Positions 9,445-57,748 of a DNA stretch of 64,000 nucleotides are shown here, piece after piece. The number at the start of each line of letters is the position of its first letter. Position 1 is the stretch's first letter. The DNA is taken from contig JBHPNE010000003.1 in assembly GCA_042562855.1 (NCBI GenBank), positions 6,366-70,365 on the forward strand, in the 5' to 3' direction. The position numbers and the translations under genes are program-made. A model generated the notes under the pieces. That model was not told where the DNA came from. It made no database searches and saw nothing but the letters and a program-made list of their open reading frames with translations. The DNA is from Elusimicrobiota bacterium (GTDB lineage: Bacteria > Elusimicrobiota > Endomicrobiia > Endomicrobiales > JAPLKN01).

Positions 9445-10095
9445 ATGTTTAAAAAAGGTCTATTGGTTTTTATGATTTTGGTTTTATCCGGAAGTATTAC
9501 CGTAGCACTTGCCGGCAGAGGTGGAAATAAGGCAAAGAGAGTAAGGCAAGGCGTGCAAAGCGGAGAGCTCACCCGCGTTGAGGCAAAAAAGCTAAAGCGG
9601 GAGGGAAAGCAAATTAAAAGAATGAAAAATAGAGCAAAAGCAGACGGTGTTGTAACCGAAGGGGAAAAACAAAGAATCAAAGCAAAAACCAAGGCGCATA
9701 GCAGACATATTTATAAAGAAAAACATGACGCTCAAAAATCGGGTAAAAAAGTTGTGGTAAATAAAAATGTTGTAGTCGTAAAACCCAAACACCGTAAAAG
9801 AGTTGTTGTAAACAAAAATGTAGTTGTTGCCCCGGCACCGGCCATGGTTGGAGTAAAAAAGGCCAAGAAGAAAAAAACCCAGATGCAAAGAATCAGACAA
9901 GGGATGAAAAGCGGAGAACTTACCGAATCGGAAGCAAAGGATCTTTTAAGAGGGCAAAAGGAGCTTCAAAAATTAAGAAATGATGCAATGTCCGACGGAG
10001 TCATGACGAAGCAAGAGAAAAAGCTGATAAATAAGAAAAGCAAGGCAGAAAATAAGAAAATTTATGCAGAAAAACACGATGCCGAAAAAAGATAA
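9445..10095 (+). CDS. secreted lysine-rich protein with two ~65-aa internal repeats
   Basis: 216 aa with a Sec signal peptide (...ITVALA) and AGGAGG RBS. Repeat motif R.RQG..SGELT..EAK.L...DGV.T..E....K.....IY.EKHDA.K occurs twice, separated by VVVNKNVVV x2. Confidence 0.8.
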   Translation: MFKKGLLVFMILVLSGSITVALAGRGGNKAKRVRQGVQSGELTRVEAKKLKREGKQIKRMKNRAKADGVVTEGEKQRIKAKTKAHSRHIYKEKHDAQKSGKKVVVNKNVVVVKPKHRKRVVVNKNVVVAPAPAMVGVKKAKKKKTQMQRIRQGMKSGELTESEAKDLLRGQKELQKLRNDAMSDGVMTKQEKKLINKKSKAENKKIYAEKHDAEKR

Positions 10096-10348: not shown

Positions 10349-10633
10349 ATGGAAGATCAGGTAAAGGTAATAAAAACATTGTCTGAAAAAAACAGGTTCG
10401 CGGTATTTTCATTCCTTTTAGAACGCAAAAAGGAATACTGTGTGCTTGATATTGCTAAGGAAACAAACCTTAAACAGTACAATGTTTCCAGGTATTTAAA
10501 AGAGTTAAAAAATGCTGACCTGGTTACCGAAAAACGGAAAGGGCAGTTTGTTTATTATAAGGTAAACAAAGCCAAAAGCGCTTATGCTCAGAATTTAATG
10601 AATTGTCTAAAAGATATGAAAAAGACAGGTTAA
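10349..10633 (+). CDS. ArsR/SmtB-family winged-helix transcriptional regulator
   Basis: 94 aa. The pattern RFAVFSFLL...EYCVLDIAKETNLKQYNVSRYLKELKNADLVTEKRKGQFVYYKV matches the ArsR HTH plus wing. Only one Cys, so no obvious metal site. Confidence 0.8.
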   Translation: MEDQVKVIKTLSEKNRFAVFSFLLERKKEYCVLDIAKETNLKQYNVSRYLKELKNADLVTEKRKGQFVYYKVNKAKSAYAQNLMNCLKDMKKTG

Positions 10634-11121: not shown

Positions 11122-12360
11122 ATGGGCACAAAAGTTTTTTCAAAGTTGCTTGTAGTTGTCATGCTCATTTCCGTTCCGCTGACTTTGGCCTATGCGGGAC
11201 TGAAAACTGACAACTTCGAAGCAACGTACGGCGTAGTGGCAGGTACCGGTACTTTTAGTAGCGGCATATCTGCTAGCACAATTTCGGTAACGTCCCAGAC
11301 AGGTTTCAGACTGGGTGTTTCGACGACAGCAGGATATGTTCTAACCACAGATGCAAACGGTGTGGGTACATGGCAGCCATCGGTAGCAGGAGTTTCAGAT
11401 CATGATGCTCTCACATCAACTGGGACATTAACACATCTTGAGCTTGAAGCCCAAATTACTGCTCTCGATGCATCCACAATCACGTTGAGGACCGATGTAA
11501 ATACCCTCGATGCGTCCACGCAAACGCTGAGTACGGCTGTAAGTAACAGGTTGCTAAATACCAGCGATACGTTGACGGGAACATTAACCGTAACGGCCGG
11601 TGTTGCAGCATCTACCGGTGTATTTAGCGGAACTTTAGACGCAGACACGCTTAATACCGGAAATGGCGATTATGAGCTTTTTGCTATGAATCAGGATGTA
11701 GAGACGACTGATGATGTGACGTTCAGCTCACTATCGGTTACCAACCTCGGTGGTTTCAGAATAGGAGTATCCACGACAGCTGGATATGTTCTAACCACAG
11801 ATGCAAACGGTGTGGGTACATGGCAGCCATCGGTAGCAGGAGTTTCAGATCATGATGCTCTCACATCAACTGGGACATTAACACATCTTGAGCTTGAAGC
11901 CCAAATTACTGCTCTCGATGCGTCCACAATCACGTTGAGGACCGATGTAAATACCCTCGATGCGTCCACGCAAACGCTGAGTACGGCTGTAAGTAACAGG
12001 TTGCTAAATACTAGCGATACGTTGACGGGAACATTAACCGTAACGGCTGGTGTTGCAGCATCTACCGGTGTATTTAGCGGAACTTTAGACGCAGACACGC
12101 TTAATACCGGAAACGGCGATTACGAACTTTTCGCCATGGATCAGGATGTTCAGACGACTGATGATGTAACATTCAGCTCAGCCACAATTACCAATACTCT
12201 TACAGCAAGCGGCGATCTAGCACTTTCTGCTACATCCACTGTTTTATACGGACCGGATGATACAGACGGCAGCTGGAAAACCGTAAGGGTCGGCAACGAT
12301 CTCGTAACATATCGTTACGATACCGATACTTGGGTAGAAAAATACAGGGTTATTCCGTAA
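11122..12360 (+). CDS. secreted fibre-like protein with an internal 150-aa tandem duplication
   Basis: 412 aa with AGGAGG RBS and signal peptide ...LTLAYA. Thr/Ala/Gly/Asp-rich, with two copies of FR.GVSTTAGYVLTTDANGVGTWQPSVAGVSDHDALT... Confidence 0.85.
   Translation: MGTKVFSKLLVVVMLISVPLTLAYAGLKTDNFEATYGVVAGTGTFSSGISASTISVTSQTGFRLGVSTTAGYVLTTDANGVGTWQPSVAGVSDHDALTSTGTLTHLELEAQITALDASTITLRTDVNTLDASTQTLSTAVSNRLLNTSDTLTGTLTVTAGVAASTGVFSGTLDADTLNTGNGDYELFAMNQDVETTDDVTFSSLSVTNLGGFRIGVSTTAGYVLTTDANGVGTWQPSVAGVSDHDALTSTGTLTHLELEAQITALDASTITLRTDVNTLDASTQTLSTAVSNRLLNTSDTLTGTLTVTAGVAASTGVFSGTLDADTLNTGNGDYELFAMDQDVQTTDDVTFSSATITNTLTASGDLALSATSTVLYGPDDTDGSWKTVRVGNDLVTYRYDTDTWVEKYRVIP
11302..12201 (+). 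repeat. 2 x 450-bp in-frame tandem duplication
   Basis: 11302-11751 versus 11752-12201. The core 11332-11663 versus 11782-12113 differs at only 3 positions (11472, 11562, 11598), all third-codon and synonymous. The edges are clearly more diverged. Confidence 0.97.
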
Positions 12361-12421
12361 ACGTAATTTCGCCGGGATTATTTCATTGTTTATCGTGAAA
12401 AATCCCGCAGAGGTGAAAGAA

Positions 12422-13024
12422 ATGTCTAGGATAAAAGGAAACTTAATAAACGAAAGATTCTTAAAAGTTCTTGCCAGTGGTGCAGGTTTTGCATTCGGCA
12501 GGAAACGTTTATTGTCTTATTCCATTTTATTCTTATTTACAGGAGTTTCTTTTGCTCTGATAATCGGCGGAGGATACATAGTTGAATTCGCAAGACTTGT
12601 TGGCAGCGGCGGCCAAAGGTTGGCCAGCTCCAATTACGTTTTAAACGGAGCGGGTATAGAGAGTATAGGAGGTTTATCAATGGCGGGCGGAGTGTACTCA
12701 ATAGATACCAGCCAATCAACAGGCGTTGCCAAACTAGAGGCGGATTTAACAATTGCCCATTGCTATCCGAATCCATACAAGCCTAACTCAGGGTTAGGCC
12801 ATAACAAAATAACGTTTTCGCATACCACAGCGTATACGAAACTTATGGTGTTTAATATAGCAGGAGAACTGGTTTACAGTACAGAAGCCGATACGCCTAC
12901 AGGCGAACTTGAATGGAATGTGCGAAATAATGCAGGCGAAAAAGTTGCCTCAGGCGTATATCTGTATCTGTTAACCGATAATGAAGGACACAAGAAAGTA
13001 GGCAAGTTTGCGATTTTGAGGTAA
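12422..13024 (+). CDS. membrane-anchored mini-protein ending in a T9SS-type / FlgD-Ig-like C-terminal domain
   Basis: ATG follows GAGGTGA (the ORF-track TTG at 12386 is less likely). Has a basic N-region plus one hydrophobic helix. C-terminus: YPNPYKP...ITF...LMVFNIAGELVYS...WNVRNNAGEKVASGVYLYLLTDNEGHKKVGKFAILR. Confidence 0.75.
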   Translation: MSRIKGNLINERFLKVLASGAGFAFGRKRLLSYSILFLFTGVSFALIIGGGYIVEFARLVGSGGQRLASSNYVLNGAGIESIGGLSMAGGVYSIDTSQSTGVAKLEADLTIAHCYPNPYKPNSGLGHNKITFSHTTAYTKLMVFNIAGELVYSTEADTPTGELEWNVRNNAGEKVASGVYLYLLTDNEGHKKVGKFAILR

Positions 13025-13042: not shown

Positions 13043-14173
13043 GTGCAAAGGCTTGGTTGGTTATCATTACTCTTAATATCAGTCTTTTTTGCAAGCGTCC
13101 TTTATGCGGCGGCTCCTACAAGCTTCCGTTATCAGGGCACCTTGAAAGAGAATGAAAAAGTGGTAGATGGTACAAAAACCATGCGTTTCCGTTTTACCAA
13201 TTCTGACGGTTCAACACAGTATTGGACCAGCGGGAATGTTGCCGTTACAGTTACGGGCGGTGTTTTCAGTACTGAACTTACTCCGTCGGTAGACTGGAAC
13301 AATATCCCCGGAGGAGGCTATTATCTGGAAATATCCGTTGAGGGAGAGGTTCTTCTTCCGAGAGAAAAAGTTTTATCAAACATTTATTCGCTTCATGCAA
13401 GAAATATAGATGACGGTATTGTAACACAGGCAAAATTAGACACTGGTGTAGCTGCTCAGTTGAATCTTGGTACTCATATTGCGACCACCACTCTTAATAT
13501 GTCTAACCAGCAAATATCAAATGTCGGAGCCTTCCATTATCCTGTTGGGCATACTGCCGGAGATGTTTTGACCGTAGATGCCGCAGGTAATGCTTCCTGG
13601 GGTAACCCGGGAGTTGTAGCTGGTACAGGTGATAGTTTGGGAAGTCATATTGCAACAATGACTCTTAATATGGCAAATTTTGCCATAATAAATTCAAGCG
13701 GTTTCCAGATGACTACCGGTGCATCTTCAGGCTATGTTTTAACTTCAGACGGCGCAGGTTATGCAAGCTGGGCTGCTCCAACAGGCGACAGCTTGGGTAC
13801 ACATGTAGCAACTCAAACATTAAATATGTCGGGTTTTGGAATTTCCAATGCTGCAAGTTTCCAGATGACAACAGGTGCATCTGCAGGCTACATTTTAAGT
13901 TCTGATGGTTCAGGTAATGCAGCTTGGATTTCTACATCAACATTTGCCGGAGACAATTTCGGAAATCATGTAGCTACTACAACAGTAAACATGAGTAACA
14001 ATGACATAATCAATGTAAAGGATGTTAAATCCAGCACAACATCAGTTTTTTATTTAGGTGATGAAAACACCGACGGAACATGGAGATTTCAGGTGGACGG
14101 TAATGGAGATTTAATATTTGAAAAGAGAATTGGCGGATCCTATGTGACACAAACCACGATAGACGCGCCCTAA
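13043..14173 (+). CDS. secreted fibre-like protein with ~50-aa repeats
   Basis: 376 aa with a GTG start behind GGAGGAG and a signal peptide. N-domain: FRYQGTLKENEKVVDGTKTMRFRF...YLEISVEGEVLLPREKV. Then four units of G(D)sLG.H.AT.TLNMs...I.N...F.MTTGAS.GY.L.SDG.G.A.W. Confidence 0.85.
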   Translation: MQRLGWLSLLLISVFFASVLYAAAPTSFRYQGTLKENEKVVDGTKTMRFRFTNSDGSTQYWTSGNVAVTVTGGVFSTELTPSVDWNNIPGGGYYLEISVEGEVLLPREKVLSNIYSLHARNIDDGIVTQAKLDTGVAAQLNLGTHIATTTLNMSNQQISNVGAFHYPVGHTAGDVLTVDAAGNASWGNPGVVAGTGDSLGSHIATMTLNMANFAIINSSGFQMTTGASSGYVLTSDGAGYASWAAPTGDSLGTHVATQTLNMSGFGISNAASFQMTTGASAGYILSSDGSGNAAWISTSTFAGDNFGNHVATTTVNMSNNDIINVKDVKSSTTSVFYLGDENTDGTWRFQVDGNGDLIFEKRIGGSYVTQTTIDAP

Positions 14174-14218: not shown

Positions 14219-14989
14219 ATGAAATTTTACATTAAATCAATTCTTTACTTTTCCATATTATTTATAACTGGTTTAGCAAATGCAGGTTTTGTTTCAGACA
14301 GGGTTGGAGTAGGTATCGTAAATCCAAATGATCTGGAAGTAGCAGGCAGAATCACAGTGTCTTCTTTTACAATGACAACCGGGGCTTCCAGCGGTTATGT
14401 ACTCAGGAATAGTGTTGGTGGAAACGCATATTGGTGTGCCTGCGTGGCTATTAGTTCAACAAATACTTGGTCAGGGGGTAATACCTATTTGGGTGCTTCA
14501 ACGATGACGGCCTTGACTCTCGATACAATAAATCACAAATCGGCATTGATAACTATAGCAAACGACAGCAACGACTTTGTAACATCCGGGACAGGAAATA
14601 TTGGTATCTCTACGGGAGTTCCGCAGGCAAAACTTGATGTTAACGGAGCTGTTTTAAGCAACCAAACTATACTTTCAAATACAGACGGTGGTGCAACTTT
14701 AGATTTTACCGGGATCAACAGCTACATTTATTATTATAATGCAAACGGGGCGTCATCGCCAACCAATGTAACAGCAATTACCGGAGGGGAAGCAGGGCAA
14801 ATGGTTACATTTTTTTATTACAGAACTGCTAGTCCCACAAATAGAAATCTGACAATAGTGAACAAGGCAGGAGCTAATGGGATTGTAACCGGCACAAACG
14901 GTAATATAACATTAACTGCAAACGATGGAGGTTGCCTAATTCTATGTTTTAACGGCACATATTGGTATATTGTTAACGCTCAGCTTTAA
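14219..14989 (+). CDS. secreted fibre paralog, shared N-module plus tip type A
   Basis: 256 aa. Signal peptide ...GLANA is followed by GFVSDRVGVGIVNPNDLEVAGR...SSFTMTTGASSGYVL...STNTWSGGNTY...GNIGISTGVPQAKLDVNGA. Ends FNGTYWYIVNAQL. Confidence 0.85.
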   Translation: MKFYIKSILYFSILFITGLANAGFVSDRVGVGIVNPNDLEVAGRITVSSFTMTTGASSGYVLRNSVGGNAYWCACVAISSTNTWSGGNTYLGASTMTALTLDTINHKSALITIANDSNDFVTSGTGNIGISTGVPQAKLDVNGAVLSNQTILSNTDGGATLDFTGINSYIYYYNANGASSPTNVTAITGGEAGQMVTFFYYRTASPTNRNLTIVNKAGANGIVTGTNGNITLTANDGGCLILCFNGTYWYIVNAQL

Positions 14990-15003: not shown

Positions 15004-15750
15004 ATGATTAAAAAAATACTGTTTATCCCATTTTTGTTCTTATTTGCTTCGCCTCTTATCGGAGGAGTTGTTTCAGATAGGGTAGGCGTTGGCAATGTTT
15101 CTAATCCGACGGATCTTGAAGTAAGCGGAAGGGTTACGGCATCCTCTTTTACAATGACTACAAACGCCGTAGATGGATATATTATTATTTCAGATGCGGA
15201 TGGAAACGGAACCTGGCAGGTACCATATGGATTTGCACTGCTTGCTTCAACAAACACTTGGACAGGGGGAAACACCTGGTTACTACCTTCAACAATGACG
15301 ACTTTAGCAGTGGATACAATCAGTCACAACTCAAAGTTGATAACAATAGCAAATGACGGAAATGACGTGGTAACCTCCGGAACCGGCAATGTCGGTATCG
15401 GCACAATAACGCCTCAGAAAAAACTTGATGTGGAAGGGGCCATAGTAAGTAAACAAAATACAGCAACACTGAATGGTACAGCAACTACAATAGATGTTGC
15501 AGATTGCAACAGCGTTAGCTTAACAGTGAATTCCAGCACAAATTTAAACGGATTCACAAATGGTGTAGCTGGCCAAACCGTTTGCATATTTAATACTTCC
15601 ACCACGAATAATGTGGTTTTGGTCAACCAAAACGCTACAGGTACAGGCATTACAACAGGCACAGGTGGAAATGTTACCGTTACTGCTGAGGGTGGAGCGG
15701 TCTTCACTTTTGATGGTACCTATTGGTATATGGTTGGTTTGCAGCAGTAA
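15004..15750 (+). CDS. secreted fibre paralog, shared N-module plus tip type A
   Basis: 248 aa with AGGAG RBS. Same module order as the 14219 gene and ends FDGTYWYMVGLQQ. Confidence 0.85.
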   Translation: MIKKILFIPFLFLFASPLIGGVVSDRVGVGNVSNPTDLEVSGRVTASSFTMTTNAVDGYIIISDADGNGTWQVPYGFALLASTNTWTGGNTWLLPSTMTTLAVDTISHNSKLITIANDGNDVVTSGTGNVGIGTITPQKKLDVEGAIVSKQNTATLNGTATTIDVADCNSVSLTVNSSTNLNGFTNGVAGQTVCIFNTSTTNNVVLVNQNATGTGITTGTGGNVTVTAEGGAVFTFDGTYWYMVGLQQ

Positions 15751-15779: not shown

Positions 15780-17084
15780 ATGAAAAAATTCAAAGTATTC
15801 ATTTTAACAATTTTTTTTTTAAGTATTAATTCTTCCCTCTTTGCCTATGCGGGAAGCACCGCGGCATCTTTCCTTAAAATCGGCACTGGAGCAAGAAACC
15901 TTTCGATGGCAGGCGTGGGCGCAGTAAGCAGAGACGTTAATGCCATATACTACAATCCTTCAGGTCTTTGCTTTGTGGAAGAACAGCAGTTTACATTCAT
16001 GCATCTTAAGTGGTTTCAGGATATAAACTATCAAAACCTTTCCTATGCCGCATGCCCTATTGGTGAACATCATTTCGGAGCATCCATCAATTACCTTTCC
16101 ATGGACGAAATAGAAAAATACGATGTCAACGATAATCCTTTGGGAAGCACCTACAGTCCGTTTGATTTCTCCGCTACGTTTGCTTATGCCACGCCCTTGC
16201 GCGAAGATTTCTTCGTCGGAGCAAATTTGAAATTCATCAGTTCTCAGATTGATGATACCAATGCCTGGACAATAAGCGAAGATCTAGGAGCAACATATAC
16301 GGGATTTGAAAAATTCACTCTTGGTGCATCAATACAAAATATCGGAGGCAGTTTAAAATATGTGGCGGAGGAGGAGAAGCTCCCCTTAAATTTAAAAGTC
16401 GGCGCTGAATATGTATGGGAATATAACGACAAAATAAAGCCTAAATTTTATATGGATATTAATCAGAGCACGGAACTGGACCCATACATAAATGTTGCAG
16501 GAGAGATGGATTTCAAACCCTCAGACAATGACAAAATGTCTTATTCGTTAAGGTTAGGTTACAGAACAAGGGACAGATACTCAAGCGGCGTGGGTTTTTC
16601 CGCAGGTGCTGGAATAGTTTTTGATAATATGGGCCTGGATTTTGCATGGGCTCCTTACGGTGAGCTGGGAGAAACTTACGGAGTATCCCTAAACTTTAAG
16701 CTGGGGGTATGTAAAGACAAACCGAAAAAGAAAGAGCGTCCGAGAGAAGAAGTTCTGGAAAAAAAGAAGGAAAAAAAGGAAAAAACCAAACCGGCGTCCG
16801 TTGTTTCCCTCAATTTGTCGGGCAAAGCTGAAACAGCCAGCTCTATACGCTGGAAATGGAATAAAATCTCAAGTGCCTCCGGATACCGTATTTACGATGG
16901 CAAAACGGACAAATTGCTTGCAGAATTTTCAGATAATAAGACTTCCTGGCTTGAGTTAAAGCTAGAACCTGAAATGGAATACAGCCGCTACATAAAAGCA
17001 TATTATGCCCAAGGCACAGCAAGAGAAAAATCCTCAAAGAAAATATCGGTCAAAACATCCGTCAAAAAATGGAAGTTCTTCTAA
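15780..17084 (+). CDS. PorV/PorQ-like outer-membrane beta-barrel fused to a Lys/Glu linker and an FN3-like domain
   Basis: 434 aa. After the signal peptide comes GSTAASFLKIGTGARNLSMAGVGAVSRDVNAIYYNPSGL, the hallmark PorV/UPF0164-type N-terminus. An alternating barrel-like body follows. The KE-rich linker is at ~16710-16790. The C-terminal SIRWKWNKISSASGYRIYDG...LEPEMEYSRYIKAYY is FN3-like. Confidence 0.7.
   Translation: MKKFKVFILTIFFLSINSSLFAYAGSTAASFLKIGTGARNLSMAGVGAVSRDVNAIYYNPSGLCFVEEQQFTFMHLKWFQDINYQNLSYAACPIGEHHFGASINYLSMDEIEKYDVNDNPLGSTYSPFDFSATFAYATPLREDFFVGANLKFISSQIDDTNAWTISEDLGATYTGFEKFTLGASIQNIGGSLKYVAEEEKLPLNLKVGAEYVWEYNDKIKPKFYMDINQSTELDPYINVAGEMDFKPSDNDKMSYSLRLGYRTRDRYSSGVGFSAGAGIVFDNMGLDFAWAPYGELGETYGVSLNFKLGVCKDKPKKKERPREEVLEKKKEKKEKTKPASVVSLNLSGKAETASSIRWKWNKISSASGYRIYDGKTDKLLAEFSDNKTSWLELKLEPEMEYSRYIKAYYAQGTAREKSSKKISVKTSVKKWKFF
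15811..15820 (+). repeat. T10 homopolymer inside the signal-peptide codons of the PorV-like gene
   Basis: Ten consecutive T read directly (codons ATT TTT TTT TTA). Confidence 0.95.
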
Positions 17085-21282: not shown

Positions 21283-21315
21283 TACTGCATGTAGTAATAA
21301 TTGCAAAGGTATGTA

Positions 21316-22329
21316 ATGAAATTCTATTCTAAATGGTTGATACTGTTTTTAATAGTTTTATGCAGTAAAAATCTTTCCGCCGGTTTTGTTACCGATAAGC
21401 TGGGTGTAGGTACGGCAAATCCCACGGAAGTAGAAGTAATAGGCACTGTTAAAGCCTCTTCTTTTACAATGATAACAGGGGCCTCCGACGGATACATCCT
21501 TACCACTGATGCATCGGGCAACGGCACATGGCAAACAGCTTCTTTTCCTGATCCCGCACTTCTTATTAACTCAACAAATACATGGACAGCGGCAAACACC
21601 TGGCTTTCCTCATCGACATTCAATCAAAATTCGCTTGACAAGGATTTTCGCATAAAGGGACAGACCGATGCGAATTTGTTTTTCGCAGACGCCTCTGCCA
21701 ACCGCATCGGTATAGGGACCGATTCGCCTGTAGAAAAACTCACCGTTAACGGAAGGTTGGCAATAGCTGAAGGAGATCAGTGTGTCCCTTATTCAGGATA
21801 CGGAAACCTTTGCGTGGATAACGTTAATAAGCAGCTGTCTCATATGGAAGCTTTAGGCAGTATCGAGCTGATAACCCCAAGCTATGCTATTTTTCAGGAA
21901 CAGCAGCCGTCGGGAACTTCAGGCGGCGGATTTTCGGCAGGTTCATGGGTACAAAGAACTTTAAATACTACCATTGCTTCAAGAGGAACTAGCATAACCC
22001 GTTCCGGAAGCGATATAATTCTTTCTTCGGGTACCTACCAGGTAATGATAGAAGCGCCCGCTTACAGGGTAAATTTACATCAAACCAGGTTCTATAATGT
22101 TACGGACGGAGCTACGGCATTTTCCGGCAGTTCAGAATATTCAAGATCTTCGGCTGTGGGCGATTCTACCCCAAGCTTATTGCACGGAGCTGTAGTGATA
22201 ACGGATCAGAAAACTTTCAGGATAGAGCACCGGTGCGGAACCGCAAATGCTACTGACGGTTTTGGAAATGCGTCCGGATTCGGGGAAACAGAAGTTTATA
22301 CCTATTGTTTTATACAAAGGTGCAAGTAG
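21316..22329 (+). CDS. secreted fibre paralog, shared N-module plus tip type B
   Basis: The ATG at 21316 (MKFYSKW...) is preferred over the ORF-track TTG at 21301. Signal peptide ...NLSA, then GFVTDKLGVGTANPTEVEV...SSFTMITGASDGYILTTDASGNGTW...STNTW...NRIGIGTDSPVEKLTVNG. C-terminal tip contains SGTSGGGFSAGSWVQRTLN... Confidence 0.85.
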   Translation: MKFYSKWLILFLIVLCSKNLSAGFVTDKLGVGTANPTEVEVIGTVKASSFTMITGASDGYILTTDASGNGTWQTASFPDPALLINSTNTWTAANTWLSSSTFNQNSLDKDFRIKGQTDANLFFADASANRIGIGTDSPVEKLTVNGRLAIAEGDQCVPYSGYGNLCVDNVNKQLSHMEALGSIELITPSYAIFQEQQPSGTSGGGFSAGSWVQRTLNTTIASRGTSITRSGSDIILSSGTYQVMIEAPAYRVNLHQTRFYNVTDGATAFSGSSEYSRSSAVGDSTPSLLHGAVVITDQKTFRIEHRCGTANATDGFGNASGFGETEVYTYCFIQRCK

Positions 22330-22340
22330 AAGGGTAAAAA

Positions 22341-23354
22341 ATGAAGCTTAAAAATTTTATAATTTTAAATACAATAACTTTTCTTATTTTTTTCGTGCAA
22401 TTGCTTAATGCAGGAATAGTGACTGACAGGGTTGGGATCGGTTCTATAAGCGACCCGACAGATCTTGAAGTGTTAGGAAGAGTAACTTGCTCAACTTTTA
22501 CGATGACAACCGGAGTATCTGCGGGATATGTGCTTAAATGCGATGCAGCAGGAGCGGCATACTGGGCCGCAGCCGTTGACTGCAGTATTTTAAATGCCAC
22601 AAACACATGGACTGCACCCAACTCCTGGACATCTTCATCTATATTCAATGCAAATATGCAGGATAAGGATTTCAGGATAAAGGGGCAGTTAGACGCGGAT
22701 CTTTTCTTTGCTGATGCTTCTCAAAACGAAGTCGGTATTGGCACATCGGCTCCTCACGCAGAGATTACCTTAAACGGCCGGCTTGCATTGGCAGAAACTA
22801 CCGTACCGACTGCATCATCAGGATACGGAAAACTATTTTGCAAAGCAACTGACAGCCAGCTTTATTATCAGGACGGTACAGGAGATACTGTTCTAGTCAG
22901 CGGCCAGTTTGCTTCCATTGAAGACCAAAAAACATCAGGAACTAACGGCGGAACCTTTACCTCAGGTGCCTGGCAGACAAGGACTTTGAACGCAGTTCAG
23001 GCTTCACGTGGAAGCTTTTTTTCGCTTTCGTCAAACCAGGTTACTTTGGCCGCAGGAACATACAGAATAATGGCGTCGGCGCCGGCATATTACGTAGGGG
23101 CGCATAAATTGAGGTTACGAAATATTACAGACGGTACGACGGCTGTTTATGGCACAGCAGCGCTTTCAAATACTTCTACCCAGGCTTCTTCAGGAAGAAG
23201 TGTATGCCAGGGAATAGTTACCATTGCGGCCCAAAAGACTTTTGAAGTCCAGCATTATTGCGCGAGCACAAGAGCTACTGACGGTTTAGGGCAGGCGGCC
23301 GGTTTTGGCGATACGGAAATATATGCGATTTTATGCATACAAAAGATAAGATAG
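22341..23354 (+). CDS. secreted fibre paralog, shared N-module plus tip type B
   Basis: 337 aa with the same architecture. Tip: SGTNGGTFTSGAWQTRTLN...GTYRIMASAPAYYVGAHKLRLRNITDG...KTFEVQHYC...DGLGQAAGFGDTEIY. Confidence 0.87.
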   Translation: MKLKNFIILNTITFLIFFVQLLNAGIVTDRVGIGSISDPTDLEVLGRVTCSTFTMTTGVSAGYVLKCDAAGAAYWAAAVDCSILNATNTWTAPNSWTSSSIFNANMQDKDFRIKGQLDADLFFADASQNEVGIGTSAPHAEITLNGRLALAETTVPTASSGYGKLFCKATDSQLYYQDGTGDTVLVSGQFASIEDQKTSGTNGGTFTSGAWQTRTLNAVQASRGSFFSLSSNQVTLAAGTYRIMASAPAYYVGAHKLRLRNITDGTTAVYGTAALSNTSTQASSGRSVCQGIVTIAAQKTFEVQHYCASTRATDGLGQAAGFGDTEIYAILCIQKIR

Positions 23355-23400
23355 TGCGGTTTTTTATTCTATATAGTTTTAAGTTTAAAAGGCGAAAAAA

Positions 23401-24423
23401 ATGGAATTAATGAGAAAGTTTAAAATTTTTATTACCAGCCTTTTTATATTTTTAGTTTTAATAACAAATATTCTGCATGCGGGCATTACGACCGATAGGA
23501 TCGGCATAGGGTCGGTAAGTAATCCGACAGACTTAGAAGTCAGCGGAAAAATCACGGCTTCATCATTTACCATGACAACTTCTCCCACAAACGGTTATGT
23601 TCTTCAATGCGATGCTTCTGGAATCGCTTCCTGGGCGGATGCGTCTGACTGCAACCTTTTGACCATGGCAAATACTTGGACGGCACCCAATTCCTGGCTT
23701 TCATCTTCAACGTTTAACGCGAATTCCGGTGACAACGATTTGCAGATAAAGGGGCAAACCAATGCCAATGTTTTTTTTGCCGATGCTTCTTTTGACAGGA
23801 TAGGTGTGGGAACAGGAACTACGAATGAAAAACTTACCGTCAACCATCATTTTTCCCTGGTCGAAACCACCGTTCCGACCGCATCATCAGGATACGGAAA
23901 AATATTCTGTAAATCAAGTGATGGTCAGTTTTATTTTCAGGATGACTCCGGAGACACGGTTTTGCTTTGTAAACATTTTGTATCTATTCGGGACGAAAAA
24001 GCCTCGGGTACCGCCGGCGGAACTTTTACCTCAGGCGCATGGCAGACTAGGACTTTGAATGCCGTTCAGGCGGCAAGCGGAGACTTTTATTCGCTTTCGT
24101 CAAATCAGATAACTTTAGCGACGGGTACTTACAGAATTCTTGCATCGGCTCCTGCATATTATGTGGATTCGCATAAGGCAAGGTTTCAGAATGTTACCGA
24201 CGCAACAACAGCCATTTACGGTGCTTCTGCGTTGGCTAAGGCTTCGACTCAGGCTTCATCGGGAAGAAGTATTGTAATGGGGGTAATTACGATAGCTGCG
24301 CAAAAAACTTTTGAACTCCAGCATAGGTGTGCAACCACGAGAAATACAGACGGTTACGGACAGGCGGCGAATTTCGGCGAAACTGAAGTTTACTCGGCCA
24401 TCTGCATCATGAGACTAAAGTAG
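23401..24423 (+). CDS. secreted fibre paralog, shared N-module plus tip type B
   Basis: 340 aa, the closest paralog of the 22341 gene. Contains a T8 run at 23771-23778. Its stop codon lies inside the left REP-like hairpin. Confidence 0.87.
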   Translation: MELMRKFKIFITSLFIFLVLITNILHAGITTDRIGIGSVSNPTDLEVSGKITASSFTMTTSPTNGYVLQCDASGIASWADASDCNLLTMANTWTAPNSWLSSSTFNANSGDNDLQIKGQTNANVFFADASFDRIGVGTGTTNEKLTVNHHFSLVETTVPTASSGYGKIFCKSSDGQFYFQDDSGDTVLLCKHFVSIRDEKASGTAGGTFTSGAWQTRTLNAVQAASGDFYSLSSNQITLATGTYRILASAPAYYVDSHKARFQNVTDATTAIYGASALAKASTQASSGRSIVMGVITIAAQKTFELQHRCATTRNTDGYGQAANFGETEVYSAICIMRLK

Positions 24424-24438
24424 GGACAGCGCCTACTT
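24418..24438. repeat. REP-like hairpin, left copy (7-bp stem, 7-nt loop)
   Basis: Read directly. Contains the stops of the 23401 gene (+) and of the transposase (-). Confidence 0.9.
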
Positions 24439-25110
24439 TATGGCTTCTTTTCTCGGCCTTCCCATCTTTGGGGAAGTTAATTTCTTACCAAACTTATTTT
24501 CTAAGTTTTTAATAAATGCAGTAGCTCCAAAAGGCAGACCGGACAACGTGTGTTTTCGTATTGCAGTAACGGCATTCTCTTCTTCTTGCCCATCAATGTA
24601 TTTTTTCCATTTATTTATATTCATATCTAAATAACGAAAAATATTTTCCAATTTTATTTTAGGTACTCCCAAGCCGGTGTTAGCTAAGGCGCTAGACCAT
24701 TCCCAATCCCACGGTTTCTTAACTTGTTTTGATCGGACAGGGTTTTTCTCAATGTATCTTGCGGCGGAAAGTAAATGAATTTCATCCAAAACGCAAGAAA
24801 AAAACCGTCCTTGCCACAGATGACCGCAAGAATTATTTTTCCGATTAAAATATTGAGCATATTTCATGTGTGTTGCATTGAAAGTTCTTGAAAGAGAATC
24901 TTCTTTTGAGGGGATTGCTATAAAGTGGACATGATTACTCATAAGACAGTAAGATAAAATACTTAGTCCATATTTTTTGCTGTATTCGCCAATACAGGAA
25001 AGATAATATTTCCTGTCAATGTCATCGAAAAAAACAGTTTGTTTGTTGTTGCCCCGCTGTGTGATGTGATGGGGGAGGCCGATCGCTACAATTCTGGCTG
25101 TTCGTGGCAT
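24433..25110 (-). CDS. IS200-like / RayT-like HUH tyrosine (Y1) transposase
   Basis: 225 aa. N-terminal LPHHITQRGNNKQTVFF, HUH motif SNHVHFIAIP, and catalytic-Tyr region ARYIEKNPVR. Confidence 0.85.
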   Translation of the reverse strand: MPRTARIVAIGLPHHITQRGNNKQTVFFDDIDRKYYLSCIGEYSKKYGLSILSYCLMSNHVHFIAIPSKEDSLSRTFNATHMKYAQYFNRKNNSCGHLWQGRFFSCVLDEIHLLSAARYIEKNPVRSKQVKKPWDWEWSSALANTGLGVPKIKLENIFRYLDMNINKWKKYIDGQEEENAVTAIRKHTLSGLPFGATAFIKNLENKFGKKLTSPKMGRPRKEAIK

Positions 25111-48635: not shown

Positions 48636-49646
48636 ATGAGTAATGAAAAACAAGCAAAAATGTATTATGACAAGGACGCAGATTTAAACGTATTGAAAGG
48701 TAAAAAAATTGCGGTTATTGGATACGGGAGCCAGGGGCATGCTCAAGCTTTGAATTTAAAAGATTCAGGGATTGATGTTATAGTATCAGAAATTGAAGGA
48801 ACTGATAATTACAAAAAATGCCTTGCTGACGGATGGAAGCCTCTAAAAGCAAATGATGCCGCAAAAGAAGCTGATTGGGTTCATATTTTAATCCCGGATG
48901 AGTTTCAGGCAAAACTTTGGGAAACGGACATAAAACCTAATATCAAGAAAGGCGCGGTTTTAAGTTTTTCTCATGGGTTTAATATACGTTTTAAAAGAAT
49001 TGTAGCACCGAAAGATATTAACGTTGTTATGATAGCTCCAAAGGGACCGGGCCATTTAGTTCGCCGCCAATTCACCGAGGGCAAAGGCGTTCCTTGTCTT
49101 TTTGCAGTTGAGCAGGATGCAACTGGTAATGCTAGAGATCTAGCTTTGGCTTTTTCAAAAGGAGTTGGCGGTACCAGGGGCGGATCTCTTGAAACAACAT
49201 TTGCCGAAGAAACTGAAACAGATCTTTTTGGAGAGCAGGCAGTGCTTTGCGGGGGAGTTGTTGAATTAATGAAAGCTGGTTTTGATACGCTCGTTGAGGC
49301 GGGCTATCAGCCGGAAATAGCATATTTTGAGTGTTTGCACGAGATGAAACTGATTATTGATCTTATTTGGGAAGGCGGAATAGGAAAAATGAATTATTCG
49401 ATTTCAAATACTGCTGAATATGGCGAATATATGGTCGGGAAAAGAATTATTACCGATGGAACAAGAAAAGAAATGAAAAAGGTTCTTGAAGAAGTTCGTT
49501 CCGGTAAATTTGCTAAACAATGGATTGAGGAAAACGAAGCCGGCAGGCCGACATTTAACAAGGCAAGAAAAGAAACAGAAGAACTTGTGGTTGAAAAAGT
49601 TGGAGCAAAGCTTCGTTCAATGATGTCTTGGACAAAGGGGAAGTAG
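48636..49646 (+). CDS. ilvC: ketol-acid reductoisomerase (class I)
   Basis: 336 aa. [26 protein letters not shown] and FSHGFNI. Confidence 0.97.
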
Positions 49647-49651
49647 AACTT

Positions 49652-50425
49652 ATGAATATGAACCTAAACATAAACATGACCAAGAAAAAAGCGAGAATAA
49701 TTTTTGCAGTGGTTGTCCTGGCTATTTTTTCTTACCTACTTTTTATTTGGACTATGGCTGCGATTGTCAGATCAAAAAATGAGGTAATAGTACCGGATAT
49801 AAAAGGAAAATCAGTTTATGAAGCTCTGTCTTTAGTTTCAGAACAGAACATGGGCTTGAAAAAACATGGCGAGGAGTTTGACGACAGTCTCCCTGCGGGA
49901 GTCGTTATTAAGCAGAGCCCCCCTTCAGGGCTGAAGGTAAAGGAAGGAAAAATCGTAAAAGTTGTCATTAGCCAGGGCGGAGAATCAGTTTTTGTGCCGG
50001 ACCTAATTGAACAGGAAGGAAGGGCATCTTCCATTCTTATACGTTCTTCGGGCCTTATCCTCGGCGAGGAAAACTCAAAGTATTCAGTTGTGTATAAAAA
50101 AGGCACCATTATTTCTCAGGACCCTCCTCCGGGAACAATTGTTGACAGGGATTCGATGGTGAATATTTTAGTATCTGCCGGAAAACCCCCGTCTAATATT
50201 AAGCTTATGCCGAAATGGGTAGGTAAAAACATAGCCCAAGTCAGCGTATGGGCTGATGACAATAATTTTGAATTACTTGTAAAAAAAGAAAATATTTCGG
50301 ATGCGGTAATGGGCGAAGTCTTAAGCCAAGACCCTGAACCGGATTCTAATTTGAAGAATAGAAAAATAATCAAAGTTATAATTTCGGGGATCGAGGAAGA
50401 TGTCAATACCGGACAAAAAATCTAA
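49652..50425 (+). CDS. membrane-anchored stand-alone PASTA-repeat protein
   Basis: One N-terminal TM, then three PASTA-like units (VPDIKGKS..., VPDLIEQE..., MPKWVGKN...). No kinase or transpeptidase domain. The ATG at 49652 is preferred over the ORF-track TTG at 49628. Confidence 0.75.
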   Translation: MNMNLNINMTKKKARIIFAVVVLAIFSYLLFIWTMAAIVRSKNEVIVPDIKGKSVYEALSLVSEQNMGLKKHGEEFDDSLPAGVVIKQSPPSGLKVKEGKIVKVVISQGGESVFVPDLIEQEGRASSILIRSSGLILGEENSKYSVVYKKGTIISQDPPPGTIVDRDSMVNILVSAGKPPSNIKLMPKWVGKNIAQVSVWADDNNFELLVKKENISDAVMGEVLSQDPEPDSNLKNRKIIKVIISGIEEDVNTGQKI

Positions 50426-55954: not shown

Positions 55955-57748
55955 ATGGCAAAATCTTTTAAATTTAAAAAACCTAAAAATCAAGATCCAG
56001 CCTCTTCTACAGATTGGATTAAATACATTCCTGTTGTATTATTTTCACTCCTTCTTTTTTTAGATCCTCTTTTCTTGGACATCAAATTAAGCAGGCCTAA
56101 ATTAATGCTTCTTGAACTGGGTCTGTACGGGATTGTTTTTTCCGTTATTTTTATTGATGCCTATTTTGGCCGTCTTGCTTTGAAAAAAACTCCTGCATTA
56201 ATTCCTGTGTTGCTTTATTTTACTGCAGTATCATTATTTTATATTTTCTCGCCGGACAAACCTGTGGCATTCAATGAATTTAAGAGAGCTCTCCTTTCGT
56301 GTATAGCATATATAGTAGCAGCAAACATTGTGAACTCCGACAAACAGAGGGCTTTTGTTCTTTGGGCATGGATTGGAGGGAGTTTCTTGGCAATATTATA
56401 CGGTGTAATGCAGCATTACGGCGGTTTCATGCAGATAATGGTCCCGAAAATGGACAGGGTAATGTCTACGTTTGGTAACCCAATATTTTTCGCCGTGCAT
56501 ATAGTTGCCGTTTTCCCGATAGCTTTAAGTTTGTTTTTAGTTACAAAATCCGTTAAAGCCCGCTGGTTTCTTTTTGCTTTTGTTGTCTTCGCACTATGGG
56601 CGTTATTTTATACAAAAACGCGGGCTGCATATATCGGCTTTGCGGTATCATTTATCGTGTTCATATGGCTGAATATTAAGTCGCGCAATATTAAGATAAT
56701 ATTTATATCCCTCATCATTTTGCTATCCGGTATTTTTGTATTCAGTACAAAAAGTATTTGGGCAAGGCAGCAAGCTCATGCGTTGATCTGGCGGGATACT
56801 CTGACGATGTGGTCTAAAACTCCATGGTTTGGTACAGGCCCGGGAACTTTCCCGATTTATTTTCCAGAATTTGCCTCAGATGAACTAAAAAAGGTCTGGC
56901 CTCAAGGAAAATTCATAGTAAACGACGCACACAATGAATATATACAGTATTTAAGTGAGACAGGAATAGTAGGTTTTGGAATATTTTTGCTCGTTTTATT
57001 GACGTTTTTTTTCTATGCAAATAAAACAATAAAAGTAATGGATGAAAAACAAAGAATAGTTGCGGTGGGGTTTATATCAAGCGTAATAGGTGTTCTTGTG
57101 CAGAATTTCTTTTCTGCAGACATGAGATTCATTATATCGGCGATTTATTTATTTATAGCTATCGGACTTTTAGAATCCTATAGAAACGAATATTTTATAA
57201 TCGATAAGATAGGCAGATATCCGAAATTTGCGATATTTTCTGCAATATGCGTTTCTGCGTTCTTTATCTTTCCGCAAGTGCCAAAACCATACCTTGCACA
57301 GAAAAAACTTGCCGCAAAACCTGACTTTTTTGATGAGAAAATACTGGAACCGGCAAAAACGGTTTCAGCGCTGCTTTCCATTGCCAAAAAACATCCCGAC
57401 CAGTCTTTGGTATATGAGAAATTGGGCTGGGTGTATTCGAAAGAAAAAAGATGGAATGAAGCAATTTCTAGTTATAAAAAAGCAGCAGAGTTAGACCCTA
57501 CTAATGCAGGGCCTCTCAATAATCTTGGGAATATTTATTTTTTAATTGGGAACAGGCAAAGTGCAATAGATTTCTGGGCACAATCGATTGCATTAAAGCC
57601 CTCTCAAATAGACAGCAGGTTAAATCTTGCAACCGCATATTTTCATCAGGGAAGACTAAAAGAATCTGTAGATCAGCTTAAAGAAGTATTGCGCATAGAT
57701 TCAGGCAATGAAAAAGCGATCGTAATGCTGAAACAAATGACGGAATAA
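55955..57748 (+). CDS. O-antigen ligase (Wzy_C)-like polytopic protein fused to C-terminal TPR repeats
   Basis: 597 aa. Multi-TM body with FYTKTRAAYIGF and WFGTGPGTF...NDAHNEYIQYLSETG. C-terminal TPR units (YEKLGWVYSKEKRWNEAISSYKKAAELDP...). Confidence 0.8.
   Translation: MAKSFKFKKPKNQDPASSTDWIKYIPVVLFSLLLFLDPLFLDIKLSRPKLMLLELGLYGIVFSVIFIDAYFGRLALKKTPALIPVLLYFTAVSLFYIFSPDKPVAFNEFKRALLSCIAYIVAANIVNSDKQRAFVLWAWIGGSFLAILYGVMQHYGGFMQIMVPKMDRVMSTFGNPIFFAVHIVAVFPIALSLFLVTKSVKARWFLFAFVVFALWALFYTKTRAAYIGFAVSFIVFIWLNIKSRNIKIIFISLIILLSGIFVFSTKSIWARQQAHALIWRDTLTMWSKTPWFGTGPGTFPIYFPEFASDELKKVWPQGKFIVNDAHNEYIQYLSETGIVGFGIFLLVLLTFFFYANKTIKVMDEKQRIVAVGFISSVIGVLVQNFFSADMRFIISAIYLFIAIGLLESYRNEYFIIDKIGRYPKFAIFSAICVSAFFIFPQVPKPYLAQKKLAAKPDFFDEKILEPAKTVSALLSIAKKHPDQSLVYEKLGWVYSKEKRWNEAISSYKKAAELDPTNAGPLNNLGNIYFLIGNRQSAIDFWAQSIALKPSQIDSRLNLATAYFHQGRLKESVDQLKEVLRIDSGNEKAIVMLKQMTE

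Follow-up and report, generated by a model that had tools for sequence, protein, structure and literature searches.

What does an outer-membrane barrel do with a soluble domain fused to its C-terminal end, and what does it have to do with the fibre-like proteins encoded around it? The question is raised by a gene at positions 15780-17084 of a 64,000-nucleotide stretch of contig JBHPNE010000003.1, from an Elusimicrobiota bacterium; we refer to this whole stretch as the window. An earlier note, made from the sequence alone, had described the gene product as a PorV-like barrel followed by a Lys/Glu linker and an FN3-like module, a combination for which it knew no precedent, and had suggested that the module could be the docking platform for the neighbouring fibres. 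Here we report that the barrel belongs to the PorV/PorQ family, that the C-terminal module is a folded FN3 domain, that the fusion recurs in other proteins, and that barrels of this family are the conserved downstream partners of proteins ending in a C-terminal sorting domain (CTD) resembling those known from type IX secretion systems (T9SS). The reading that we favour, and that we hold with moderate confidence, is that of an outer-membrane barrel that anchors the neighbouring CTD protein and has a periplasmic leg made of the linker and the FN3 domain.

The barrel is a member of the PorV/PorQ family, within the FadL superfamily. The NCBIfam model of this family (NF033709), whose cut-off is 90 bits, gives 180.1 bits, with aa 26-307 aligned to profile positions 1-325 of 326, and the Pfam PorV model (PF19572) scores 43.2 bits against a cut-off of 27; UPF0164, DUF5723 and the FadL-family Toluene_X gave weak Pfam matches only. 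When a profile of 78 family members was run against the sequences of the PDB, PorV of F. johnsoniae (6h3i_F) was the best match at E 3.6e-44, with FadL and TodX falling near E 0.1-0.7. The full-length AlphaFold2 (AF2) model, built on the alignment of the same 78 members, is confident throughout the barrel (predicted local distance difference test, pLDDT, of about 93-98, and above 90 over aa 30-310), and its top Foldseek matches are again PorV structures, 8gl6_F (E 3e-15; template modelling score, TM, of 0.66 by target length) and 6h3i_F, followed by TbuX, FadL and TodX. Thus, the link to PorV drawn in the earlier note holds by sequence and by fold, and an assignment to FadL or to an OmpA-like family, which it had named as the alternative, does not, FadL and TodX being second to PorV. 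Its label of a PorV-type shuttle is correct as regards the family and overreaches as regards PorV itself: the barrel is orthologous to neither PorV nor PorQ, with the equivalog models for PorV (NF033710; 88.1 bits against 250), PorV2 (64 against 325) and PorQ (NF033711; 125.8 against 220) all below their cut-offs and PorQ, not PorV, scoring highest among them. The nearest named relatives of the barrel come from Endomicrobiia and Elusimicrobia, at 35-39% identity, and databases already name such relatives 'PorV/PorQ family protein'.

The family is also recognisable from the beginning of the mature protein, where the note had seen the signature start of PorV/PorQ/UPF0164-type barrels. Indeed, the N-terminal motif FLKIGTGARNLSMAGVGAVSRDVNAIYYNPSGL fits the consensus of the 78 aligned family members, GTxGAxFLKIGxGARxxAMGxAxxAxAxDxxAIYWNPAGL, among which L32 and N59 are invariant and F31, K33, I34, G35, P60 and G62 are conserved in at least 90%. 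The hatch segment, which reads FLKIGTGARNLSMAG...YYNPSGL, forms short helices in the AF2 model (pLDDT above 90), and its NPx motif is the counterpart of the NPA motif of the FadL hatch, named in PDB titles. The signal peptide ahead of it, with cleavage after AYA as judged by eye, is a helix at residues 2-15 of the model. The protein would be exported through Sec and then inserted into the outer membrane, with the N-terminal hatch plugging the FadL-superfamily barrel. In the DSSP string of the model there are 15 strand runs, of which 111-114 and 120-125 read as a hairpin within a single external loop, which would leave 14 strands by this string.

After the barrel comes the linker, CKDKPKKKERPREEVLEKKKEKKEKTKPAS, in which 21 of the 30 residues are charged (12 Lys and 6 Glu among them); it was found at 16710-16799, and had been placed before at about 16710-16790. 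The segment that follows is a folded FN3 domain and no chance pattern. Taken singly, its sequence gives little: Pfam fn3 (PF00041) stays below threshold (17.1 bits against 25, E 0.006, aa 345-418, profile positions 5-77 of 84), the best PDB match is the FN3 domain of Bacillus chitinase A1 at E 0.12, and a word-index search with the FN3 segment alone returned no matches. When 1.84 billion representatives were searched exhaustively by phmmer with the C-terminal segment, 1653 proteins matched at E<=1e-3 and 320 of these at E<=1e-10; many of them are of giant size, with as many as 26 stretches that match in a single protein, and Pfam fn3 is above threshold in nine of the ten matches that were scanned. 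From the 411 matching repeats extracted, 43 diverse ones were aligned with the query (alignment A3), defining a subfamily with the signature S-I-x-W-x-W ... A-T-G-Y-R-I-Y-D ... W-x-E-x-x-L ... Y-x-R-Y-[IV]. Run against PDB sequences, the A3 profile finds FN3 domains of the canonical kind, in RPTP-delta, titin, fibronectin, tenascin and chitinase A1; the best E is 6e-20 and the match spans the full domain. Refolded by AF2 with A3, the domain is a sandwich of seven strands with a pLDDT of 87.9, and all its top Foldseek matches are FN3 domains (10Fn3, 1fna, at TM 0.78, is one example). The core residues conserved in the subfamily (I356, W358, W360, Y369, I371, D373, W390, E392, L395 and Y401) are all kept in the query. 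In the full-length model aa 320-434 have a pLDDT below 50 and the tail is not confidently placed, because the family alignment contains no homologues there. Disorder of the C-terminal region, which these low values could have indicated and which the note had named as the finding that would speak against a fusion, was rejected, since the segment folds confidently as FN3 when given its own subfamily alignment.

Is the fusion peculiar to this gene? A hidden Markov model (HMM) of the barrel, run over the 149 best FN3 matches, found a complete N-terminal barrel in three of them: P0154 (798 aa, E 2e-88), P0155 (698 aa, E 3.5e-87) and P0191 (594 aa, E 1e-70). All three continue into FN3 repeats of the query's WxW...YRIYD subtype, four to five in P0154 and three in each of the others; P0154 and P0155 then end in an OmpA domain, and P0191 is followed on the same contig by an open reading frame (ORF) for a 49-aa OmpA fragment, most likely its frameshifted tail. 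P0155 is particularly similar, with a barrel 44% identical to the query's and a linker (Cys-PKKKELEKP...) that begins at the same Cys after the last strand. Other tails are found among the relatives detected by barrel similarity, including OmpA (P0013, P0029, P0117, P0292), TPR (P0009, P0032, P0117), HEAT (P0006), a weak SH3 (P0010), the Ig-like module CarboxypepD_reg (P0005) and long Lys/Glu/Ala helices (P0007, P0008). Of 171 family barrels whose C-terminal end is complete, counting the three proteins that came in via the FN3 search, 141 end no more than 15 residues after the last strand and in 25 the tail exceeds 40 residues; in an independent metagenome sample of 76 complete barrels, tails of this length occur in three and FN3 in none. 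The fusion of barrel and FN3 is rare but recurrent, and the survey of relatives that the note had called for thereby supplies the precedents, including a barrel with a different Ig-like module, that it had believed missing. (Two of the sequences in a further alignment, A2, which served as a search profile only, are spliced: in them the barrel of P0154 or of P0191 is joined to one of the later FN3 repeats of that protein.) As a separate observation, at one metagenome locus (L042, 1-2838) the barrel ORF runs on for 661 residues, thioredoxin-fold-like by eye and with no FN3 match; this long ORF may be a read-through or an assembly artefact.

The recurrence of the fusion bears on two other explanations of the query's architecture. 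The first is that a misassembly or a sequencing error has joined two genes, which might be suspected in a metagenome-type assembly whose contig encodes proteins that are singletons at 90% identity. However, the ORF is uninterrupted, and three independent proteins from other samples share both the order of barrel and FN3 and the FN3 subtype, one of them with a similar linker as well, so that an artefact appears extremely improbable. The second is that the protein is mainly a tether between outer membrane and cell wall, a decayed member of the barrel-(FN3)n-OmpA class whose FN3 domain is a remnant with no specific partner. P0155, which shares so much with the query and yet carries three FN3 repeats and OmpA, is compatible with decay, and the 141 tailless barrels imply that a tail is dispensable for the core role of the barrel. 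Against this, the preservation of every subfamily-conserved core residue and the confident FN3 fold argue for a maintained function, and the gap of 217 bp downstream of the gene is too small to hold a remnant of OmpA or FN3; we consider decay doubtful.

If the barrel is an anchor, what would it hold? The candidate is a small secreted protein encoded upstream in the same cluster (12386-13024), whose aa 126-212 (about nt 12761-13021) form a T9SS type-A-like CTD. With TIGR04183, for which the cut-off is 23, this protein reaches 27.8 bits, and there are matches to the CTD ends of both PorZ (E 2.6e-15) and PorU. Its true start codon probably lies downstream of the TTG at 12386, which appears too far upstream because homology begins at residue 48. 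It has a miniature layout, consisting of a signal or anchor segment, about 65 residues and the CTD, and proteins of this kind are encoded next to tailed barrels in at least three genomes (the window; L002, 1028-1564; L006, 5-664). In L002 the homologue is 56% identical over 169 aa and is encoded as the direct upstream neighbour, at 368 bp, of the gene for P0005, a protein of assembly GCA_041694835.1 that is among the closest relatives of the query (42% identity) and the closest one with a long tail; a fibre-like ORF lies just ahead of the homologue. In L006 the related CTD is likewise encoded directly upstream of the P0010 barrel gene of assembly GCA_005239945.1. Elsewhere the CTD protein is larger: in L004/L005 the barrel gene begins shortly after the end of the gene for a propeller protein of 1058 aa that has a CTD, and in an Elusimicrobia genome (L007) a CTD protein of more than 3000 aa overlaps the start of the barrel gene by 4 bp. 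All five CTDs align (alignment A4).

The pairing extends to metagenomes. We surveyed 80 metagenome loci with family barrels (L008-L087), searching their ORFs with a CTD profile, and a same-strand ORF ending in a CTD abuts the barrel gene on its upstream side in 45 of the 66 loci that include upstream sequence and on its downstream side in 2 of 65; the profile was built iteratively from the surveyed loci themselves, and the asymmetry between the two sides is the control. The gaps between the two genes range from an overlap of a few bases to about 170 bp, and the cargo proteins, where not cut by the contig end, mostly measure from about 340 to more than 1600 aa. The barrel family is a conserved downstream partner of CTD proteins, in an arrangement that echoes the SprB-SprF and PG1035-PorP cargo-barrel pairs of Bacteroidota (PMC9143113). 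The extracellular loops of PorV bind type-A CTDs (PMC10994853). Because a barrel gene of this family is typically the downstream partner of a CTD gene outside Bacteroidota, we propose that the query barrel would be a dedicated carrier or anchor that uses its external loops to keep the small protein's CTD at the cell surface; the association with the T9SS carrier or anchor class suggested in this way is a genomic association only.

The same synteny helps to judge another possibility, that the barrel takes up hydrophobic compounds or lipids as a FadL-like channel, a role suggested for the spirochaete UPF0164 proteins, and is unrelated to any CTD and with FN3 as a periplasmic appendage. The weak matches to Toluene_X and UPF0164, the rank of FadL, TodX and TbuX as next-best folds after PorV, the hatch NPx motif in common with FadL and the lack of T9SS core genes in the window all accord with a channel. 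However, a CTD gene so consistently placed on one side would be unexpected for a nutrient channel, the PorV/PorQ family model far outscores the FadL models, and PorV is the best match by sequence and by fold; a role in uptake is therefore unlikely.

On which side of the outer membrane would the FN3 domain be? By analogy with homologous architectures, the linker and FN3 are most likely periplasmic, because in P0154 and P0155 FN3 repeats of this subtype come after the barrel and before an OmpA domain, and OmpA_C-like domains bind peptidoglycan (PMC7192894). In addition, an even-stranded barrel with a periplasmic hatch would have its end on the periplasmic side. In Bacteroidota, the PorP barrel is bridged to the cell wall or peptidoglycan by PorE, a periplasmic lipoprotein with TPR, CRD and OmpA_C domains and a beta-propeller as the fourth (PMC7192894, PMC9143113), and the TPR, CRD-like and OmpA tails of the barrel family are of types that also occur as PorE domains.

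A docking platform for fibres, as proposed in the earlier note, needs an FN3 domain exposed at the surface, by way of an odd strand count or of a threading like that of inverse autotransporters. There are signs in this direction: the order of barrel, linker and Ig-like domain resembles intimin/invasin, and an invasin barrel ranks 47th among the fold matches; counted naively, the strand runs of the DSSP string number 15; the FN3 subtype abounds in giant proteins, and one of those scanned, P0135, has a weak, sub-threshold sorting-domain match (Por_Secre_tail/FlgD_ig); and the barrel gene sits among fibre genes. These are opposed by the relatives, which hold the same subtype between the barrel and a peptidoglycan-binding domain, and by the OmpA or TPR nature of other tails in the family. 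Furthermore, the conserved hatch fills the barrel lumen, as in FadL and PorV, Pfam gave no match to an inverse-autotransporter family, and the strand pair 111-125, read as a loop hairpin, would leave 14 strands. We consider a surface-exposed FN3 quite unlikely, and for any docking on the outer face the better candidate would be the CTD of the small protein, bound to the external loops of the barrel.

In the reading that we favour, of a barrel anchoring the CTD protein, the linker and FN3 would thus be a periplasmic leg, a spacer or adaptor directed toward the cell wall or a periplasmic partner, and the query would be the shortest version of the barrel-(FN3)n-OmpA architecture of its relatives. 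The fibres, which have signal peptides and no CTD, may attach or assemble via the small CTD protein. Several observations weigh against this proposal. In the window the CTD gene is separated from the barrel gene by three fibre genes (2.7 kb), and none of the T9SS core genes (SprA/Sov, PorK/L/M/N, PorU, PorT) occurs in its 64 kb. The periplasmic topology depends on homology and on an even strand count read from a DSSP string, and the tail has no confident placement in the full-length model; the abundance of the same FN3 subtype in giant proteins such as P0135 means, moreover, that the subtype as such is not confined to the periplasm. Finally, Pfam and NCBIfam scans of the query found neither OmpA nor any other recognisable wall-binding domain.

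The protein has similarities with, and differences from, five known systems: (i) PorV, the T9SS type-A carrier (F. johnsoniae Fjoh_1555, P. gingivalis LptO; 6H3I, 8GL6), has in common with it the FadL-superfamily barrel and the FLKIG...NPxG hatch motif and, as regards the family, a genomic tie to type-A-like CTD proteins. In contrast to PorV, the query barrel is shorter (aa 26-307, against PDB chains of 345-402 residues), with shorter loops as a consequence, and is followed by a linker and an FN3 domain that are present in no PorV equivalog model or PDB chain. Likewise, canonical PorV serves many cargoes, whereas the barrel genes of the query's family abut their cargo gene. (ii) In the attachment complex PorU-PorV-PorQ-PorZ of P. 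gingivalis, PorQ holds PorZ (PMC8754138). The best equivalog score of the query is with PorQ and the small protein matches the CTD of PorZ, which fits one barrel holding one CTD protein; however, that score is under the cut-off, the partner of about 180-210 aa matches PorZ in the CTD only, and PorQ has no FN3 tail. (iii) PorP/SprF barrels hold type-B cargo. They resemble the arrangement proposed for the query in being cargo-specific barrels encoded beside a CTD cargo gene, and their cargo-PorP-PorE complex (PMC9143113) resembles the tailed members of the family in having periplasmic TPR, Ig-like (CRD) and OmpA modules directed toward peptidoglycan. In contrast, they are a different barrel family (the PorP/SprF model gives E 0.02 on the query), and the CTD at the query locus is type-A-like, not type B. 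PorE is moreover a separate lipoprotein, whereas the corresponding modules are fused to the barrels of the query's family, the query itself having FN3 only and no OmpA. The linker-FN3 barrel could be regarded, by analogy, as a single-chain counterpart of the PorP-PorE bridge of Bacteroidota. (iv) OmpA-type two-domain proteins also consist of a barrel, a flexible linker and a periplasmic C-terminal module, and the relatives P0154, P0155, P0013, P0029 and P0292 end in an OmpA domain; the query differs in having a barrel of FadL/PorV type rather than one of 8 strands, and in lacking OmpA. (v) With the inverse autotransporters intimin and invasin the likeness of barrel, linker and Ig-like domain is superficial, since neither Pfam nor NCBIfam matches the query to their 12-strand barrel family, its barrel is PorV-like and plugged by a hatch, and its relatives end in OmpA.

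PorV, PorQ and PorP are known as stand-alone barrels, with the link to the cell wall provided by the separate PorE. At the query locus and in its relatives, barrel and putative periplasmic spacer, with or without OmpA, are written into one polypeptide. In the literature searched we found no description of PorV/PorQ-type barrels with periplasmic tails, of PorV or a T9SS in Elusimicrobia, or of type-A-like CTD genes paired with barrel genes outside Bacteroidota. In phyla that have received little study, the gene of a PorV/PorQ-type barrel usually comes right after that of one CTD protein, which suggests a rule for the pairing of carrier and cargo, and the small pair at this locus, a CTD protein of about 180-210 aa and its barrel, would be a convenient model for work on CTD recognition. 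The family also offers a handle on the evolution of the attachment side of type IX secretion, and in our view the family-wide pairing and the fused, PorE-like legs outweigh in interest the single barrel-FN3 gene. As a speculation, to which we give a low probability, there may exist outside Bacteroidota, in the lineage of the query, self-contained two-gene surface-display modules, each composed of a barrel and the CTD protein encoded upstream, that would need neither SprA translocon nor PorKLMN motor; some of the barrels would have their own periplasmic leg (FN3, Ig-like, TPR or OmpA) replacing PorE, and at the present locus tail-fibre-like proteins would be displayed via a miniature CTD adaptor.

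The barrel gene is part of a same-strand cluster with short gaps, the features of which are collected in Table 1, and the rest of the 64-kb window contains housekeeping genes.

Table 1. Parts of the barrel-FN3 gene and genes of the surrounding cluster, in coordinates of the window
Feature	Position	Strand	Basis or remark
Whole gene: PorV/PorQ-family barrel, Lys/Glu linker and FN3	15780..17084	+	ATG start, 434 aa, uninterrupted ORF
Signal peptide, aa 1-24, MKKFKVFILTIFFLSINSSLFAYA	15780..15851	+	Sequence reading
N-terminal hatch/plug segment, aa 25-67, motif FLKIG..GAR...NPSGL	15852..15980	+	Conserved columns, model
Transmembrane beta-barrel, aa 68-310	15981..16709	+	AF2 model, Foldseek
Lys/Glu-rich linker, aa 311-340	16710..16799	+	Composition
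FN3 domain (beta-sandwich), aa 341-427	16800..17060	+	AF2 model, Foldseek, profile against PDB
Tail VKKWKFF, aa 428-434 (7 aa)	17061..17081	+	Sequence
ArsR-type regulator	10349-10633	+	
Fibre 1, fibre-like secreted protein with internal 450-bp tandem duplication	11122..12360	+	
Small secreted CTD protein (T9SS type-A-like sorting domain at its C-terminal end)	12386..13024	+	TIGR04183, PorZ match
Fibres 2-4, fibre-like secreted proteins	13043-14173, 14219-14989, 15004-15750	+	Between CTD gene and barrel gene
Regulator with MEDS, multiple PAS and LuxR-type helix-turn-helix (HTH), 1282 aa	17302..21150	+	
Fibres 5-7, paralogous secreted proteins with phage tail-fibre-like C-terminal domain	21301..24423	+	phrog_24210

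The fibres of the cluster are related to one another in part. The N-terminal region, over about 150 aa, is common to fibres 3-7, fibres 3 and 4 are 46% identical, and fibres 5-7, tandem paralogues at 44-62% identity, all have a signal peptide and a match to phrog_24210 (E 8e-19 to 1e-34), in a chromosomal, non-prophage setting. Fibres 2-4 have no Pfam or NCBIfam match, the fibre proteins gave chance-level matches only against PDB sequences, and the CTD profile search found a sorting domain in none of the fibres of the cluster. In fibre 1 the duplication (11275-12024, plus strand; spacing 450 bp, with 300 nt at 93% identity) yields two protein segments of about 150 aa that are nearly identical, and a pair of identical antisense ORFs. 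A prophage origin of the cluster was considered and rejected, there being no other phage-type gene and the flanks being housekeeping genes; the only phage-like signals are the tail-fibre tip domains and two matches below threshold, one to a tail needle in fibre 1 and a YmfL-like one at 9445-10095 (28 bits, cut-off 90). The product of the gene at 9445-10095 (plus strand) is secreted and rich in Lys and Arg; it contains a motif of about 60 aa (GELT..EAK.L....K....) twice, and its only matches are weak ones of DUF533 and YmfL-like type.

The regulator downstream of the barrel gene is a cytoplasmic protein that begins with a MEDS domain, contains at least five PAS domains and ends in a LuxR-type HTH; its position in the middle of the cluster suggests that it may be linked to the barrel. 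Counts of promoter and terminator sites over 10-25 kb are no higher than in shuffled sequence, and we claim no operon boundaries. The last fibre gene is immediately followed, at the cluster edge, by an IS200-like Y1 transposase (24433-25110, minus strand).

Further along the window, an O-antigen-ligase (Wzy_C) domain is fused to C-terminal TPR repeats (55955-57748, plus strand), and a 265-aa protein (49628-50425, plus strand) has PASTA repeats as its sole Pfam match at E<=1e-8. MreB, RpoA, AccC, IlvD and EF-P of the contig each form a cluster of one at 90% identity in a set of about 15 billion proteins, and the organism therefore belongs to a sparsely sampled lineage. The GC content of the window is about 39%.

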